Below the pieces are notes generated by a model. It searched no databases. It was not told where the DNA came from and worked only from the letters and a program-made list of their open reading frames with translations. This document shows, piece by piece, positions 1 through 8,007 of a stretch of DNA of 10,501 bases. Both the position numbers and the translations under genes were made by a program. Each line of letters begins with the position of its first letter. Positions within the stretch are counted from its first letter, which is position 1. The stretch is from a virus: the UHGV virus genome UHGV-1356964. One strand, 5' to 3'.

Positions 1-1025
1 GTAAGGAGAAAATCCTGACCGTCGGAAAATATCCGCTTATGACTTTGCAGGAGGCAAGGGATAAAGCATGGACTGCGAGGAAAGAGATCTCGGTTGGCAT
101 CGATCCGGTAAAGGCGAAATAGGCTTCGTCTAACAACAATTCCTTTAGCGCCATTTACAAGGAATGGTACGAGCACAAGAAGCAAGTCTGGTCAGTAGGA
201 TATGCAAATGAACTTGCAAAAATGTTTGATGACGACATTTTACCCATCATCGGCGGTCTTGAAATTCAGGATATTGAGCCGATGCAACTACTGGAAGTAA
301 TCCGCAGATTTGAAGATCGCGGTGCAATGGAGCGAGCAAATAAAGCCCGCAGAAGATGCGGCGAGGTTTTCCGTTACGCTATTGTCACCGGAAGGGCTAA
401 ATATAACCCGGCACCTGACCTTGCAGACGCCATGAAAGGATACCGCAAGAAGAACTTCCCGTTTCTTCCAGCAGACCAGATCCCTGCATTCAACAAAGCA
501 CTGGCAACATTTTCAGGAAGCATCGTATCGCTCATTGCGACCAAAGTTTTACGCTACACAGCCCTAAGAACGAAAGAGCTTCGTTCCATGCAATGGAAGA
601 ACGTCGATTTTGAAAACAGGATTATCACCATCGACGCCAGTGTGATGAAGGGTCGCAAAATTCATGTGGTTCCTATGTCAGACCAGGTGGTTGAACTTCT
701 CACTACGCTAAGCTCAATCACTAAACCAGTATCAGAGTTTGTTTTTGCCGGTCGCAACGATAAGAAGAAGCCAATCTGCGAGAACGCGGTATTACTTGTG
801 ATCAAACAAATCGGCTATGAAGGTCTGGAAAGCGGTCACGGATTCAGGCATGAATTCAGCACGATTATGAACGAGCACGAATGGCCTGCTGACGCGATTG
901 AGGTGCAACTGGCACATGCCAACGGCGGATCTGTGCGCGGGATTTACAACCATGCTCAGTATCTCGATAAGCGCAGAGAAATGATGCAGTGGTGGGCGGA
1001 CTGGCTTGATGGGAAGGTGGAGTGA
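1..1025 (+). pseudogene. int: Tyrosine integrase (P4/IntS-like), 5' end outside window, interrupted by in-frame TAG at 120-122; longest intact ORF is 222-1025
   Basis: The frame starting at position 3 reads KEKILTVGKYPLMTLQEARDKAWTARKEISVGIDPVKAK, then TAG (120-122), then ASSNNNSFSAIYKEWYEHKKQVWSVGYANELAKMFDDD, continuing without a frame change into the 267-aa ORF 222-1025. That ORF carries tyrosine-recombinase hallmarks (HGFRHEF for the H-x-x-R box, LAHANGGSVRGIYNHAQY with the C-terminal Tyr). Integrase-like sequence on both sides of a single stop in one frame indicates a nonsense mutation, or an amber-suppressed gene, not a true gene end. Stop is TGA at 1023-1025. Confidence 0.75.
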
Positions 1026-1306
1026 TCCACCTTAACTATCGAATGACATAAAGCCTTGCAATCCAGTACAAAGCTTTGCGTTTCTCAGTTTTGCCTCAAG
1101 TGGATACAAATACCACCACCTGATGTGGTACATATCATTACATGTAAATAATTATATGATCACGAACTTACTAAAATATAAACATCACAACCCCATACAT
1201 TTATCACCTAAGTGCTTGACAAATGGCAAATGGTTTTGCAATCTTTCTTTAATTAGCATGATGTTCATGCTACTATTTGTAGAATATTTTTCAAATATGG
1301 TGATAT

Positions 1307-1615
1307 ATGTTTAAATACTTGTTTTTTATACTTACCTTTATGGTTAGTAATTCATCAAGCGCAAAGATAAATGAAATAGTATGTGGTTCTCATCTTGTTA
1401 AAGTTAACACATCAAATGCGTCCAAAGTGCATCTAGATGATGTAGAATTTAGCCTTGAAAAAGAATTTTTTAACGAGGCTCGTTCTCTTGATTATATATC
1501 TATTGATAAAGAAAAATTCACTTTAACTGAGTTTTATTCTGGTGATTATAGTATAACAATACAATCACCAGAAACTAAAAAAAGAGATATTATTATGTGC
1601 AAGTTGTTACGTTAA
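1307..1615 (+). CDS. Hypothetical small secreted protein (102 aa, signal-peptide-like N-terminus), AT-rich cargo
   Basis: ATG at 1307 with GGTGA a few nt upstream. N-terminus MFKYLFFILTFMVSNSSSA looks like a cleavable signal peptide, followed by a hydrophilic ~80-aa domain. A 102-codon open frame in ~28% GC DNA is unlikely by chance because stops are frequent there. The ORF converges on and overlaps the stop of the neighbouring - strand gene (1607-1615), which lowers confidence. Confidence 0.35.
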   Translation: MFKYLFFILTFMVSNSSSAKINEIVCGSHLVKVNTSNASKVHLDDVEFSLEKEFFNEARSLDYISIDKEKFTLTEFYSGDYSITIQSPETKKRDIIMCKLLR

Positions 1616-2725
1616 CGCTTTGTTCTTATTTGAAATTGCACATATCATAGCAATAGCCATATAAAACACAGCAAAAAACGGCAGGCTAATTTTTAAAGAT
1701 GATAGCAACATCATTAGCTTTGCCCTTTTTGTTATTTTAATTTTAATTATAAAAACACAATATAATACTATGCATAATACTCCAAATGGAAGACCGAATA
1801 TTGTAATAAAGTTTCCAAATATAGTCATATCATATAACGACTCATAAAATGATGGCGCAGATTCTGACTTACCAATCAAACCATAACCAAAAATATATAA
1901 ATTTTGATTTCCAATAAAATCAAGAATGGTCTCTATCTTTATATTATTGCTACCATCAGCCCCAGATAGAAATAAAACAATCCTGTCATTTACAATATTT
2001 AAAACAGAAAGATACCCAATCACAAATATTGCTATCACTGGGATAATCATCCTAATTCTCATCATGCCAACACATAGCATGAGAAAGCAAAGAAATATTC
2101 CAACAAATGACAATGTAAACGTCATTGAAACGCATGACAGTAAAAACAAATAATCAATCTTTTTATTAATTGCATATCGTAACGTAATTAACCACGCTGT
2201 TATTCCGCAATATACACTTGGTTCTGCAGTTAGCCCTGTTGGCCTAAACCCAACTCCAGTCATCATATTTCTTGATGGTTCACCACCAATTAGCATAGAG
2301 TAGTCAACAATAGAACCAAATAAAAGTTTCGATACTACTTGAATAAATAAAGAGAGTATGAAAACTACTAGCGCTGCATTTATGGATCTCTCTAAAGTAT
2401 CTTTATCCACCCCCTTACATCCAACATATAACAAGTATGACGACACCACCCAAATTATTACTTTAAGCGTCTGTGATAATAATATCTCATTATGCTTTGA
2501 TATATAAACTTGGATAAATGAACTTATTATAACAATAGATACCACCATTATTATAAATAATAATGACTGATACGTCATTTTACTTACACTTTTTGCGTAT
2601 AAAAAAAGGCATGCGAATGGAAATAGGAATAGTTGTACACCATAAACTGTCACCGGAGATGCTAAATCTATAATTACACCAATTACTGCAATAAAAAGGA
2701 AAAAGGCACTCATGTTAACCACCAT
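1607..2725 (-). CDS. Polytopic inner-membrane protein, Wzy/EpsG-like (candidate O-antigen polymerase / serotype-conversion protein)
   Basis: 372-aa ORF with about 10 hydrophobic helix-length segments separated by short loops, one with GGEPSRNMMTGVGFRPTGLTAEPS. Very low GC. It lacks the N-terminal motif I associate with acyltransferase-3 O-acetylases, and its size fits Wzy-type polymerases (350-450 aa). It sits in the int-tailspike slot that P22-like phages use for O-antigen modification genes. The start may be the second ATG (2711-2713), which has GGTGG 5 nt upstream. Function is inferred from topology and context only. Confidence 0.6.
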   Translation of the reverse strand: MVVNMSAFFLFIAVIGVIIDLASPVTVYGVQLFLFPFACLFLYAKSVSKMTYQSLLFIIMVVSIVIISSFIQVYISKHNEILLSQTLKVIIWVVSSYLLYVGCKGVDKDTLERSINAALVVFILSLFIQVVSKLLFGSIVDYSMLIGGEPSRNMMTGVGFRPTGLTAEPSVYCGITAWLITLRYAINKKIDYLFLLSCVSMTFTLSFVGIFLCFLMLCVGMMRIRMIIPVIAIFVIGYLSVLNIVNDRIVLFLSGADGSNNIKIETILDFIGNQNLYIFGYGLIGKSESAPSFYESLYDMTIFGNFITIFGLPFGVLCIVLYCVFIIKIKITKRAKLMMLLSSLKISLPFFAVFYMAIAMICAISNKNKALT

Positions 2726-2772: not shown

Positions 2773-4821
2773 TTATAAATATTTCAAGACAAACATCATG
2801 AGCTCATCATATCTTACACCATATCTGTCACCGAAATCAGTTTCGTCTTTGCACCAGAACCCATACTTTTCAGGATTTAACCCATTATTGCGCATTATGA
2901 CGCCAACCGTTTGCGCCCCGACACCAAAATGATAACGCGCGTTACCACCTTTACTTCTGATGCTCTCTTTCAGCTTGTACCTGTAAATACATTTTCTTAT
3001 TTCATTTGCCGCTTGTTTTTCTTTCAATAAAAGATCATCTGAACATCCGCATGGTTCTTTCATTGATTCATCTGATGTAGTTATTACACCTGTGGTAGAA
3101 TATATTGCTGACCATCTTTTTGTTGTATCGCCTAATGCCGTATCTGAGTCACCTTCAGGAGCTAATCTATTATAGCCACTAATAAGAAGGTCATTTTTTG
3201 GGAGCTCTTTTGATACTCCACCATCAGTTGATGTTAATTTAACGCCTCTTGTTCCAGGTATACTTTTTATTTCAATGCCTGCCTCTGATGTTCCTATTAT
3301 CTGTAGATCGGAATTTTTATTTCTACCATCCTGAAATGGAAGTTCAAAAACATTAGATGTAAATCTCCAATCCGTATCAGAATAAAGCTCGGCTGGTGAC
3401 GAGTTATCGCGCTGTATTATAATGGCACCTTTTCCGCTATCTCGTCTCCGACAACCGGCAATGTTTGCTTGGTTGGGATCCATATTTGAGCTAACCAACA
3501 CACCATCAAACTGAGATATGCTTTCGTAATTATTAGCTCCTTGCCGCTGTGCACTTTCACTTATATAAACCCATGCCCAATCAAAATGGTTCTCATAACT
3601 TCCAACGTTCAGGTCAATCTGATACGGACGAGTGCACAACTCGCCAAAAAACCCACGGAAGTGGATATTACCTGCCACTGATGTATCACTGTTCACCGTC
3701 TTAACAATACGTACTGCGCATGGCACGTCTGCAGGCCAATTGCCCAGAGTGATATTCTCGGAGTGGCCACCAAACACGCGCAAAGAGTCGGTAGACTCAA
3801 TCCAAAAACTACAATTTCCCGTGGCATGATGGGGGTTATATATATGTATGCGCGTATTATTATTATCGCCACTGACGCTGCGTTCAAAATAAAACCCACA
3901 GTCTACACGCTCAAAGTTAGGGTTCATAATTGAGTGGTAGTACGAGCCGCTGTTTTCACCTGATACTGTTGGTCCCGGCTTGAATTTCAGTCCGACTTTT
4001 ACTCCCCTTGCACGTGGATTCTCCATTACACAAAATTGCTGTGACACACGCATGGTTGCCTGAGATTCGTCTTCAGGAGCAATGGCGTAGGCAATAACGT
4101 CAGAGTAGTTATCTGGGTTAATTACTACAGGATTGATTATGTGGCAGAAATCATGGCTCATTCTTAAACATGTAATTCCCGAGTCTCCTGCTACGATTGT
4201 TGTACCAGTAAAATCAATATACCGTGTAGATGTAACATCCTGTGTATACGAGCCATCGAACTTCATTACAAGACTTTGTGTTATGCGATATATCGCACCT
4301 ACTCTCCCTGTTAATTTACCAAAAGGTATTCCTTCGAGCCATGCTAATGCTGATAACATAGATGTGGTGTCGTCAACAATCCCATCACCAATTGCCCCAA
4401 ACTCTTCAAATGTTTTAATGGCTGTCGCCCGATGCGCTATCTGATCAATTGTTGAGCCATATTTTGTTAGACTCTGCCTTAGCTGATCAGGATCATACTT
4501 CAGCACGTTTGGAAAATAGAACTGCTGTGCACCATACGCATCATAAACAGCCATAGAATGACCTTGCACCGTAACAAACTTGGCAATCTGTCCGTTATAT
4601 ACAGGGTAACCAGCAGAATTGATAATGATTGGTTGCGAAACAGGAATGTGAGATCCGTCTTCGTTCTCTACATAAACCTGAATCTGGTTTTCAGGATTTA
4701 CCGGGTCAGTATCAATTTTACCGATATAAATTTTGCCATTGGCTACGGCTTTAAAAGAACGCGCCATAGTGAAGAGTTGCGAAGGCATACTCACTACAAC
4801 ATTGGCTGTAATGTCTGTCAT
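2773..4821 (-). CDS. Tailspike protein (P22/Sf6-type head-binding domain, beta-helix-like receptor-binding domain, C-terminal intramolecular-chaperone-like domain)
   Basis: The N-terminus [61 protein letters not shown]...VLKYDPDQ matches, from memory, the conserved head-binding domain of P22-family tailspikes. The central region is Gly/Asn/Ser/Thr/Asp-rich with many aromatics, typical of a beta-helix glycanase. The C-terminus has TSDESMK, fitting the S-D-x-x-x-K Ser/Lys motif of self-cleaving chaperone domains. GGAG lies 8 nt upstream of the ATG at 4819-4821. Confidence 0.93.
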
Positions 4822-5252: not shown

Positions 5253-5275
5253 AGCCGGTTCACTCCGGCTTTTTG
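5253..5275 (+). terminator. Intrinsic terminator after the small basic-protein gene (overlaps the 3' end of the convergent peptidase gene)
   Basis: Stem AGCCGG (5253-5258), 6-nt loop TTCACT, stem CCGGCT (5265-5270), followed by TTTT (5271-5274), 7 nt after the TAA at 5244-5246. On the - strand the same hairpin is followed by a moderately U-rich tract, so it may also serve the convergent gene. Confidence 0.6.
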
Positions 5276-5625
5276 ATATGTTGCTCGCAGAACTCAACAA
5301 GCCTGCTCATTAAGTAGCAGTAAGTCTCGTTGGCTCTTCCTGGTTCAACATCAACACCTACCCTTGAGCAGATATCGAATGCCATGTGAGCGCACTCATG
5401 GGCAATAGTAGATAGTTTGCCATTGAACACGCCTATCACATGCAAAACACCATTCTCGCTACTCATTGTATGAGACGCTCCGTTGGCGTCCGAGTCATGC
5501 ACGTCAACGCCAAGTTTTTGATGCAGGCGTTGCCATTCTGGAAAGTCTCTACAAAACACAATTGTACCGCTCTCAAAGAGCGGAACGAGCATCTTTGGTA
5601 CGTTTCCAATGTTAACTTTTTTCAT
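5260..5625 (-). CDS. Small HEXXH zinc-metallopeptidase-like protein, ImmA/IrrE (DUF955)-like, 121 aa
   Basis: The motif KLSTIAHECAHMAF (x-T-[LI]-A-H-E-x-x-H) is followed about 15-25 residues later by VEPGRANETYCYLMS, which resembles the E-x-x-A-N-x-[FY]-x-x-x-L-[LM] segment after the HEXXH in ImmA/IrrE-type peptidases. AGGA lies 4 nt upstream of the ATG. There is no adjacent helix-turn-helix partner gene. Confidence 0.75.
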   Translation of the reverse strand: MKKVNIGNVPKMLVPLFESGTIVFCRDFPEWQRLHQKLGVDVHDSDANGASHTMSSENGVLHVIGVFNGKLSTIAHECAHMAFDICSRVGVDVEPGRANETYCYLMSRLVEFCEQHIKKPE

Positions 5626-5659: not shown

Positions 5660-6145
5660 ATGAAAAAATCACTGTTAATTATCCCGCTTCTGCTGGCTGG
5701 GTGCGCAAAAGTAAGCGACTATCAGGCAAGTTGCGAGCAACGCTATCCAAAGCTTAGCGATATGGCTAATTGCCTTGATGCCAGCTTGAAGAACGACTCT
5801 CGCATGGCATCAGCACCAACACCTAAGCTGTATGTCCTTGCTGCGAAGATGCTCGGGCAAGGTGTCGATGAAGGCAAGATAAGTGACACACAGGCAAGAC
5901 TTGAACTTCAGAATCTTTATGTTCAATTACAAAGCCAAGAACAAGCACAACAAATAGCACAAAGCCAAGCATTCCAGCAGGCTTTATTGAATTATCAGGC
6001 TGTAAACACAATGCAAGCGATCGAGCAAAAAGCGCGCCAGCCTGTTATAACTCAACCTTACCCAACACGCGTTGACACATATACAAACTGCAATTCAGGA
6101 TTTGGAAACACGGTAACATGCAACAGTAGCAGTAATATCAGGTAG
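5660..6145 (+). CDS. Lipoprotein (161 aa; lipobox LAGC, Ala at +2, Gln-rich middle region)
   Basis: ATG at 5660 preceded by AAGGAG (5644-5649). N-terminus MKKSLLIIPLLLAGCAKVS is a classical type II signal peptide with lipobox L-A-G-C. The track's longer ORF from 5609 would overlap the divergent peptidase gene start and lacks a ribosome-binding site. The mature protein is Gln/Ala-rich with a Cys-containing C-terminal tail (TNCNSGFGNTVTCNSSSNIR). Confidence 0.8.
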   Translation: MKKSLLIIPLLLAGCAKVSDYQASCEQRYPKLSDMANCLDASLKNDSRMASAPTPKLYVLAAKMLGQGVDEGKISDTQARLELQNLYVQLQSQEQAQQIAQSQAFQQALLNYQAVNTMQAIEQKARQPVITQPYPTRVDTYTNCNSGFGNTVTCNSSSNIR

Positions 6146-6159
6146 TTATATCTTATCTT

Positions 6160-8007
6160 TTATTGCTGTTCTGCTGTAATTTGGCTTGAAAGTATAGGGC
6201 GTATCGCATTTGCAGCATTATTTAGCGCTCTTTCATAGGCTGGTGTTCCTGCTTTGGTGTTTGCCAGACGTAAGAGAGCATTCCTTGCTGCTTTGGACTC
6301 ATACAAGCGCATCATTGCACCGAAACCAGCCTCAAGCCCCATTGATACGCCAAGAGTCGCAGTTGCGCCAATCGTCCTTATCCTGTTGGCTTGCGATTGC
6401 CCCGTCTGAGTTACTACATTTGCGGTGTCTGACCTTGCTGTTTGCTGTAGAACTTCATGAAGAGCATCAAGCTCTTTCATGTGCTTTCCTGAAAAAATAG
6501 TGTTGTAAATTTCACCGCCTGACTGAGATTTCAGCTTATTAACTTCAGTGATGAACTTGGCTGGAGAGTCACCGGCCTTTTCCGCTATTTTGCTGACGTA
6601 AGCTGCACGCATAGCATCTTTCCCTTTATCATCCAGTGCGCTCCAGATTCGTTTCACGTCAGATGGTTTTCTGCTTAATACAACGGTATTTATAAGTTCA
6701 GGACTGGCTTCACTGCTTGCCTTGTTGAGCTTGTTAGCAATGTTTTTATTAAGCACCTTATTATAAACGTTTGCATAATCGGAATTTGCTTTAAGGTATT
6801 TTGCTGCGTCTGATGCACCGAGGTTTTTTGCAACTGCGTTACGAAGATCTTTTGACATTGCATTCTCTACCATATTGGTAGCTGCTTTTGCCTGGTTGGG
6901 GAAGACCATAGCATCTCCCTGAACATTAGATCTAAATGCTGTTCTGTGCTGACGCAAGAGATCAAACGTAACATCCAAATCAGTTGCAGGGTTTGCTAAT
7001 TCTTCACGTAGGTTACGCAAGGATGTAAGCAGGCTTTGATTGGCAGACGTCCCAAGCCGTTCCTGTCTTGCGATCGCTGTATTCAGAGCATTCATGGTAT
7101 TTGTGGTATCAACTGCGGCATTACCCATTTTATTGGTAACGTCATTGATAACAGCGCCAGCGGCATCCTTCCGTCCCCTTAACGTGGTGGTCAGAGATTT
7201 CACCACATCATCCGGGTTGTACTCACCAAAACGGTCAAAATAATTACTTACCAACTTACTACGCGTTGCATATTGCTCCGCTCGCTTTGAGCCTGTCCCG
7301 AGCAAAGCCCCCTCGGCATCCTGAGTTAGGCCGCGAGTGAAAGCATTTTTCGGCGGGATAACATCAGATGTCATTGGTGTCACGCCCATCGATTCTGATG
7401 TGGCAATTTTCTTCGCCACTTCTGGCGCAATATCACCTTTTATAGCCGTTATTCCACGCCCTATTCCCTTTGCTGCTGCGGAAAGAACACCCTGAGTGGC
7501 AAGGTTAACTCCGGCATTTTTAGCTGCATTTTGTGCGAAATCGCCTTTCTGATTTGTGGCCTCTGCCAGTGAGCCAATAGCCATGCTTCCTGCCGTTCCA
7601 ACTCCTGGAACTAAATACCCACCAATTGTTTCACCGGCTTGCGCGTAAGGGTCTGTCGGTCGATCGACAGGGCGATAAACATCATCCAAAACCTTGGGGC
7701 CACCAAGCCCCTGGCTGATTGCATTAATCAGGCTTGCGCCGCCCTGTAATACGTCGAATGGTATATTTACCAGACCACGACCTGCCTGTTCTGCAATTTG
7801 CCCTGCACTTTGACCACCAGTGAGCCAATCGCCAGCTTGTTGCATCAATGAAGGTTCTTCACGTGCTGGTTCATTATTGGCCTGATTAACTGTTTGTTGC
7901 TGAACAGCCTGACCAGCAAAATACTCATCAATGGCGGTGCCAATATCTTCCGTGCTCGTACCATCAGGAAAGGTAAATGTCTTACCGTTTGCAGTTACTT
8001 TCATCAT
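6160..8007 (-). CDS. Ejection (DNA-injection) protein, P22 gp16-like
   Basis: 615-aa ORF, last gene of a tightly packed - strand operon. Its start overlaps the stop of the upstream gene (ATGATGA at 8001-8007). Size and position match P22 gene 16 (609 aa); composition is Ala/Gly/Asn/Thr-rich as expected for ejection proteins. The assignment is by synteny and size, not sequence identity. Confidence 0.88.

Follow-up and report, generated by a model that had tools for sequence, protein, structure and literature searches.

A new family of small proteins marks a previously undescribed cassette for polymerase-type seroconversion in E. coli O166 and related enterobacterial prophages; its function is predicted. 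The member studied here is encoded in a stretch of 10,501 nucleotides from the virus genome UHGV-1356964 (the window), tail to tail with the gene of a Wzy-family membrane protein. We propose that it is a putative periplasmic accessory factor of a polymerase-replacement cassette, which would neutralise or redirect the resident polymerisation machinery of the host. To this reading we assign a probability of about 0.4.

The window covers the integrase side of a P22-like prophage inserted at the tRNA-Arg gene argW. The order is intS, small gene (plus strand), membrane protein (minus), tailspike (minus) and P22-type ejection proteins. Its features are:

1..1025, plus strand: 3' part of intS, the argW-site integrase (Pfam Phage_integrase); marks the prophage end; TAG at 120-122
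1299..1304, plus strand: Shine-Dalgarno-like GGTGAT, from the sequence; the ATG is 2 nt downstream
1307..1615, plus strand: small gene, 102 codons plus TAA; very likely exported protein of a new family (ORF, PGAP CDS, homologues, dN/dS)
1307..1363, plus strand: predicted signal peptide, codons 1-19; predicted signal peptidase I site after SSA; no lipobox
1364..1612, plus strand: mature protein of ~83 amino acids, 9.6 kDa, pI 5.6; predicted eight-stranded up-and-down beta-barrel; invariant Cys26 and Cys98
1607..1615: tail-to-tail stop-stop overlap of 9 nt, TTACGTTAA; contains TTA 1607-1609 of the minus-strand membrane-protein gene
1607..2725, minus strand: Wzy-family membrane protein, putative phage O-antigen polymerase; 372 amino acids from the ATG at 2725, 368 from the PGAP start at 2713
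2773..4821, minus strand: tailspike; P22-type head-binding N-terminus, amino acids 1-113 (Pfam Head_binding, E 1e-66)
~2773-4482, minus strand: receptor-binding part of the tailspike, amino acids 114-682; travels with the cassette

At 120-122 intS has a TAG nonsense codon; the corresponding codon of nine related loci is AAG (Lys). The integrase is probably truncated, and the prophage is therefore likely unable to excise. Between the tailspike and the ejection-protein genes are two moron-like ORFs, 5660-6142 (plus) and 5260-5625 (minus), neither with a Pfam match; the former starts with MKKSLLIIPLLLAGC, a lipoprotein signal with a lipobox.

The small gene and its predicted product

The earlier note, made from the letters of the sequence alone, had described a 102-codon frame whose stop overlaps that of the Wzy-like gene. 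This is exactly what we found, with an ATG at 1307, a TAA at 1613-1615 and nine shared nucleotides. It had also remarked that the DNA is AT-rich and that long frames are rare there by chance. Indeed, the G+C content of the small ORF is 27.8% compared with 43.9% for the entire window, and an ORF of at least 102 codons in any of the six frames occurred in 18 out of 5000 composition-preserving shuffles of 1026-1700 (675 nt; 0.36%). The length is unusual, yet alone it is not decisive. In E. coli genomes of RefSeq, PGAP calls the same frame a CDS; the products, WP_072667295.1 and WP_000477644.1, are each named 'hypothetical protein'. At the position equivalent to GGTGAT of the window the homologues in loci L030 and L035 carry AGGAGG or AGGATG.

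A word-index search with the small protein returned only copies of 97-100% identity. An exhaustive phmmer search of 1.84 billion representatives yielded two proteins of 102-103 amino acids with 37% identity, and a profile search added a third group of homologues. Identity between the three subfamilies is 33-55%, and the alignment covers their full length; the sole indel amounts to one codon. In homologues at 33-40% identity frame, length, signal peptide, cysteine pair and motifs are all preserved. Twenty-four positions are invariant in the six aligned sequences, including A19, C26, C98, FxNE, DY, FTLT, SGxY and QxP. Synonymous and non-synonymous substitutions were compared, a check which the earlier note had suggested. 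The dN/dS of the small gene was 0.23-0.38 (Nei-Gojobori; pairs with unsaturated dS); for L033 versus L034 dS was 0.39 and dN 0.088. This indicates that the frame 1307-1615 is under purifying selection. Selection was looser on the small gene than on wzy, for which omega was 0.13-0.18; dN of the small protein was 2-2.7 times that of Wzy. The former opinion that the ORF could equally be spurious is rejected by conservation at the protein level together with a dN/dS below 1, and we consider it practically certain that the small gene is real.

Upstream of the small gene a promoter scan performed no better than with shuffled sequence and detected no convincing -35/-10 pair. A -10-like hexamer prefixed by TTTGT is located 20-40 nt before the start codon, one per subfamily (TAGAAT, TAGTAT, TGATAT; upstream regions of the window at 1280-1285, of L040 and of L035), with a recognisable -35 in none of them. 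The ORF of 63 amino acids at 1123-1314 (plus), which has a hydrophobic tail and overlaps the start of the small gene, was considered as an Iap-like candidate. It was rejected as probably spurious because it is broken in L005 and missing from the other subfamilies. An Rfam scan of the window gave no match. Between the small gene and the convergent wzy no intrinsic terminator was found. Consequently, transcripts of wzy and tailspike would run antisense through the small gene; such a transcript would extend to a weak hairpin at 1130-1114. This, and the AT-richness of the region, is what could be expected if the ORF were spurious or had a role only as DNA or RNA, i.e. as a 3' antisense or transcription-interference region for wzy. 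A region of that kind does not explain why distant homologues preserve a reading frame with its signal peptide, cysteines and motifs and with a single one-codon indel, why synonymous changes per site exceed non-synonymous ones, or why a frame of a length seen in 0.36% of shuffles yields a confident AlphaFold2 fold. We regard it as extremely unlikely.

Scans of the small protein against Pfam, PHROGs, NCBIfam and PADLOC gave only weak and mutually inconsistent matches; those to DUF6488 (E 0.1), Y_Y_Y, frataxin and Csx19 (E 0.003) were rejected as noise. Sequence-profile searches of the PDB were empty. A collection of 50,697 phage records contained no DNA or protein match to either the small gene or the wzy gene, and pattern scans of contigs from viruses, GTDB genomes and metagenomes retrieved one further near-identical locus. 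A literature search with the RefSeq accessions of the small protein found no citing paper. As judged by these searches, the small protein is a member of no described family.

That the gene might specify a small exported protein had been proposed before, and the alignment bears it out. By inspection, the N-terminus MFKYLFFILTFMVSNSSSA, followed by K at the cleavage point, has n-, h- and c-regions and an AxA-type cleavage site. The homologues have their cleavage sites in the same alignment column (ANA/G, VSA/D and VGA/N). Six out of six sequences show, again by inspection, a positively charged n-region, a hydrophobic core and small side chains at -3 and -1, and A19 is invariant at -1. The mature protein is acidic and hydrophilic (GRAVY -0.37); the signal peptide is the sole hydrophobic stretch. 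Export of the product to the periplasm is very likely.

AlphaFold2, with an alignment of only four sequences as input, modelled the small protein with a pLDDT of 80 and a pTM of 0.68. The model consists of a disordered N-terminus (the first 17-20 residues, with a pLDDT below 50 at residues 1-3 and 11-17) and, from residue 21 to 101, eight beta-strands in succession. Cys26 and Cys98 probably form a disulfide which closes the barrel. From the order of the strands, three invariant loop motifs are placed at one pole of the barrel, T35-x-N37-x-S39, N56-E57 and S78-G79-x-Y81. Taken from the predicted secondary structure, the shared pole suggests a conserved binding face.

A Foldseek search against BFVD returned uncharacterised phage proteins alone, at E 1e-4 or weaker. 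The generic fold of the small protein also resembles periplasmic lysozyme inhibitors and T6SS immunity proteins. Possibly, the gene is an independent moron which hitch-hikes beside wzy, e.g. a periplasmic superinfection-exclusion, anti-hydrolase or immunity-type protein; one example would be a PliC/MliC-like barrel which blocks a lysozyme, or the lytic transglycosylase of ejection proteins that enter the cell. However, the resemblance to the periplasmic eight-stranded barrels PliC/MliC, PhiA and ACP is generic and no higher than to unrelated barrels, and the small gene is associated with a polymerase and not with cell-wall genes. The Pfam MliC/PliC models matched none of six members of the small-protein family at E up to 10. 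We consider a hitch-hiking moron unlikely.

The Wzy-family neighbour and the mobile cassette

The membrane protein encoded opposite the small gene is a polytopic inner-membrane protein with the fold common to Wzy, WaaL and SEDS proteins. Models from Pfam, NCBIfam and PHROG, including Wzy_C and O-ag_pol_Wzy, did not match the protein of the window, and Wzy_C matched one out of ten family members at E 0.006. Wzy proteins are described as highly sequence-variable (PMC12502699); therefore, the missing match to curated models weighs little. Two homologues with 34% identity to the window protein, P0014 and P0015, are encoded in Wzx/Wzy-type clusters right after wzx (Polysacc_synt) and GT4 genes, and proteins of this type are the sole unassigned polytopic proteins of their polysaccharide clusters. 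Because this is the classical position of wzy, the designation Wzy-family polymerase was accepted, as the earlier note had surmised, and we infer polymerase activity from it.

The wzy genes are mosaic. The first 295 codons of the L005 wzy are of L034 type (99% identical), those from 296 to the end are of window type (100% identical), and the small gene beside it is of window type as well. The breakpoint is near a conserved SAPSFYESLYDMTIFGN block (window 1607-2725; L004, L005, L034). The same type of small protein is found beside Wzy bodies which are just 58% identical (N-terminal 295 residues). The hybrid pairings indicate that the small protein is not tuned to the body of the adjoining polymerase. 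The small gene is invariably co-inherited with the final ~75 codons of wzy. Hybrid Wzy-family polymerases are evidently viable. At 8186-8260 of L044, an epsilon15-like contig, the last ~22 Wzy codons are frameshifted (LKISLPF, then SIWLCLCFW and a stop) next to an intact small gene; this is either real or an assembly error.

The earlier note had speculated that the small gene could be a partner of the Wzy-like gene, and the two are linked wherever the polymerase is phage-borne. Each locus retrieved via a divergent Wzy homologue (77, 66, 58 and 58% identical) has the small gene, in convergent orientation and with an overlap at the 3' end of wzy. Conversely, loci retrieved via distant homologues of the small protein all carry Wzy. 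In every phage-type locus found, the small gene runs towards and into the 3' end of a gene for a Wzy/WaaL-fold protein, which adjoins a tailspike whose receptor-binding domain is homologous. The convergent genes share 9, 14 or 6 nt depending on the subfamily; the arrangement is conserved, the sequence is not.

Three phage backbones carry the cassette. P22-like carriers have a Head_binding tailspike N-terminus and use the argW site and at least one other chromosomal site (L014). In epsilon15-like carriers the order is Rz, GH19 endolysin, holins, small gene, Wzy and tailspike. The third type is characterised by Gp10_C and Tail_spike_N domains. The receptor-binding parts of the tailspikes are 65-96% identical across all cassette loci, whereas the N-terminal adaptors differ and match the respective backbone (window, L024, L030, L034, L035, L040 and L045 compared). 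A shared receptor-binding domain together with a backbone-matched adaptor indicates that the mobile unit comprises the receptor-binding domain of the tailspike, Wzy and the small gene. The tailspike pattern looks like clean domain swapping with the conversion cassette carried along. Neither an iap homologue nor another conserved small ORF was found in the cassette loci (tblastn of the epsilon15 Iap against all loci). As the small gene travels with polymerase and tailspike, it is the sole candidate for an accessory factor of the cassette. It is likely that the small gene is functionally tied to the Wzy cassette; the physical overlap alone could explain the co-inheritance.

At the argW locus of E. 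coli some prophages are cut down to int, small gene, wzy, tailspike and IS1 (L001, L020, L026). They abut a truncated dsdX and both cassette genes are intact. This suggests that the conversion end of the prophage was kept after the remainder had been lost.

Cases of Wzy without an intact small gene are few. The two chromosomal-cluster Wzy homologues of 34% identity have no small gene. In Salmonella bongori (L006-L009) a Wzy homologue with 57% identity, intact in several assemblies, resides together with an Acyl_transf_3 gene in an island flanked by IS3; L008 also contains an integrase fragment. An OspG-kinase-like gene is near the island in L006. Directly downstream of the S. bongori Wzy, in the expected convergent orientation, is a remnant of the small gene (L006 ~6114-6230, minus strand). 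Its N-terminal half is replaced by IS3-like sequence and the rest has a frameshift and a stop. According to its sequence the remnant is the decay of a real gene. An intact Wzy beside a decayed remnant implies that the small gene is dispensable there, and not that it is spurious. Thus, a broken frame beside an intact Wzy, which according to the earlier note would speak against a gene, does occur once; it is a decayed remnant in an IS-ridden island and does not point to a spurious ORF.

These cases bear on the question whether the phage Wzy needs the small protein as an obligate helper or subunit, be it to fold, to be active, to form its specific linkage or to control chain length. The strict co-occurrence and overlap with Wzy in three subfamilies and on three backbones agree with such a role, as does the invariable co-inheritance of the Wzy 3' end with the small gene. 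Yet the Wzy homologues of chromosomal clusters manage without such a partner, the S. bongori Wzy is intact while its small gene has decayed, and one small-protein type is paired with the divergent Wzy bodies described above. In addition, the 2-2.7-fold excess of dN over that of Wzy is unusual for an obligate subunit. An obligate helper is quite improbable.

E. coli O166 hosts and known conversion systems

The cassette is present in five of the 5426 complete E. coli genomes. One of them, MLI104K2 (L002, NZ_CP116925.1), was set aside. Both of its cassette genes are broken; its argW-prophage region is 88.9% identical, rich in frameshifts and has fragmentary CDS calls including housekeeping-adjacent genes. 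Because the frameshifts extend across the entire region, it was treated as an error-rich assembly and not as gene decay. Each of the four good carriers has the O166 O-antigen wzx/wzy cluster (L046-L049: NZ_AP041814.1, NZ_CP116923.1, NZ_CP035817.1 and NZ_OZ197100.1), compared with 18 of 5426 genomes overall; the cassette is absent from 14 of these 18. If genomes were independent, the chance of four out of four would be (18/5426)^4, i.e. ~1e-10; since they are related, the real probability is less extreme. The O166 wzy of the host is unrelated to the phage Wzy, and three carriers have it intact. In MLI104K1 the resident wzy has a 1-nt deletion outside a homopolymer (AAATACTTTC changed to AAATATTTC) and is annotated as frameshifted. 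The prophage remnant of MLI104K1 (int, small gene, wzy, tailspike and IS1) has kept both cassette genes. This single case suggests that the phage polymerase can substitute for the resident wzy.

In the Pseudomonas phage D3 and the Salmonella phage epsilon15 a phage wzy is accompanied by an inhibitor which acts on the polymerase of the host (PMC4815439, PMC3715488, PMC12004945). The D3 Iap is a membrane peptide of 31 amino acids and a reported mimic of TM2 of Wzz (PMC12004945). For E. coli, a 2019 O-antigen review raised a polymerase inhibitor with a second wzy only as a hypothesis (PMC7685785). The cassette shares with D3 Iap/Wzy-beta a temperate phage with its own O-antigen polymerase and one adjoining small accessory gene, and a host which keeps its resident wzy (PMC4815439, PMC12004945; intact in three O166 carriers here). 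Unlike in D3, the small protein is a 102-residue precursor with a cleavable signal peptide and a predicted soluble beta-barrel, and its gene is convergent with wzy, outside of the wzy unit. With epsilon15 (gp21, Wzy; gp22, inhibitor of the alpha-polymerase) it has the slot in common, i.e. lysis cassette, small gene, wzy and tail fibre or tailspike; some carriers actually are epsilon15-like prophages with a tailspike N-terminus 76% identical to gp20. However, the epsilon15 Iap has 66 amino acids and two TM segments, and its gene is co-directional with and upstream of wzy.

Sequence comparison with Iap proteins was done for that of epsilon15 alone. BLASTP of the small protein against NP_848230 produced a 3-residue match at E = 10. 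Neither was there a significant profile-profile match between the Wzy family described here and the epsilon15 Wzy (hhalign probability 2%). The Iaps are short hydrophobic membrane peptides of 31-66 residues with one or two TM segments, and the small protein is not of this kind. Its gene is directly beside the phage wzy in all phage loci, in convergent orientation and without an iap-wzy operon. Viewed as an analogy, the likeness to the D3/epsilon15 inhibitor is only positional. Thus, the comparison with these inhibitors, which the earlier note had offered as speculation, holds for the place beside a phage wzy; it fails for the protein, a predicted soluble barrel without similarity to the epsilon15 Iap.

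The gtrABC/oac modules of P22, Sf6, SfV and Kapi1-type argW phages are likewise located between integrase and tailspike and presumably change the O-antigen receptor (PMC8787464). In contrast to the presumed polymerase replacement, they glucosylate or acetylate, and they share no homology with the cassette. Kapi1 is an argW P22-like phage which modifies the O antigen. Its candidate genes at the integrase-tailspike position are unrelated to the cassette genes, as concluded from the absence of a match in the phage database.

Proposed role of the secreted barrel

We propose that the small product would be exported by the Sec pathway, cleaved after residue 19 and folded in the periplasm into an eight-stranded barrel of ~83 residues. 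Its gene would be the accessory part of a mobile lysogenic-conversion cassette which has moved among P22-like, epsilon15-like and third-type prophages. The phage Wzy would join the host O units by a different linkage, and the secreted barrel would act, from the periplasmic side, on the host's own machinery for O-antigen assembly. Its target may be the resident Wzy or the coupling of Wzy to Wzz or WaaL. As a consequence the phage polymerase would prevail, the surface would be altered and phages with the cassette tailspike would cease to adsorb. The role would then be that of a functional counterpart of the D3/epsilon15 Iap on an unrelated soluble scaffold.

Observations in favour of such an inhibitor include the resident wzy of O166 carriers, which is a competitor, and the position of the small gene in the iap slot of epsilon15-like prophages; D3 and epsilon15 provide a precedent. 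Several argue against it. The small protein lacks similarity to the epsilon15 Iap and has a soluble instead of a TM architecture. Its gene is convergent with wzy and has no convincing promoter, whereas iap is co-transcribed from upstream. It is intact in MLI104K1 despite the broken resident wzy. The lysozyme inhibitors and T6SS immunity proteins with a similar generic fold weigh on the same side, as does the fact that the activity of the neighbouring polymerase is deduced. Because the small gene is present beside a competing polymerase, absent in chromosomal clusters and indifferent to the Wzy body, an antagonist fits better than an obligate subunit. Because the negative cases are few and co-inheritance is in part forced by the overlap, the inhibitor or redirector model is held at the probability given at the outset.

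To our knowledge, a soluble inhibitor of Wzy that acts in the periplasm is without precedent. It is possible, if rather doubtful, that the protein is the founder of a new class of phage proteins, which would be soluble, antagonise the resident Wzy, Wzz or WaaL in the periplasm and differ in mechanism from the transmembrane Iap peptides. Such a class would permit serotype conversion by polymerase replacement in E. coli O166 and its relatives. If the protein is not an inhibitor, it still represents an orphan family which is clearly delimited and readily accessible to genetics.

The cassette provides a concrete and testable E. coli case of polymerase-replacement seroconversion. With it, P22-like and epsilon15-like prophages bring in a second Wzy, unrelated to the resident one, and the E. 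coli carriers of the cassette, four good complete genomes, have the O166 cluster. If the proposal is correct, the barrel would be a new kind of natural inhibitor of the Wzy pathway and, being soluble, easy to handle experimentally. It would be useful for dissecting the interplay of Wzy, Wzz and WaaL and would be relevant to serotyping, phage therapy and the prediction of host range.
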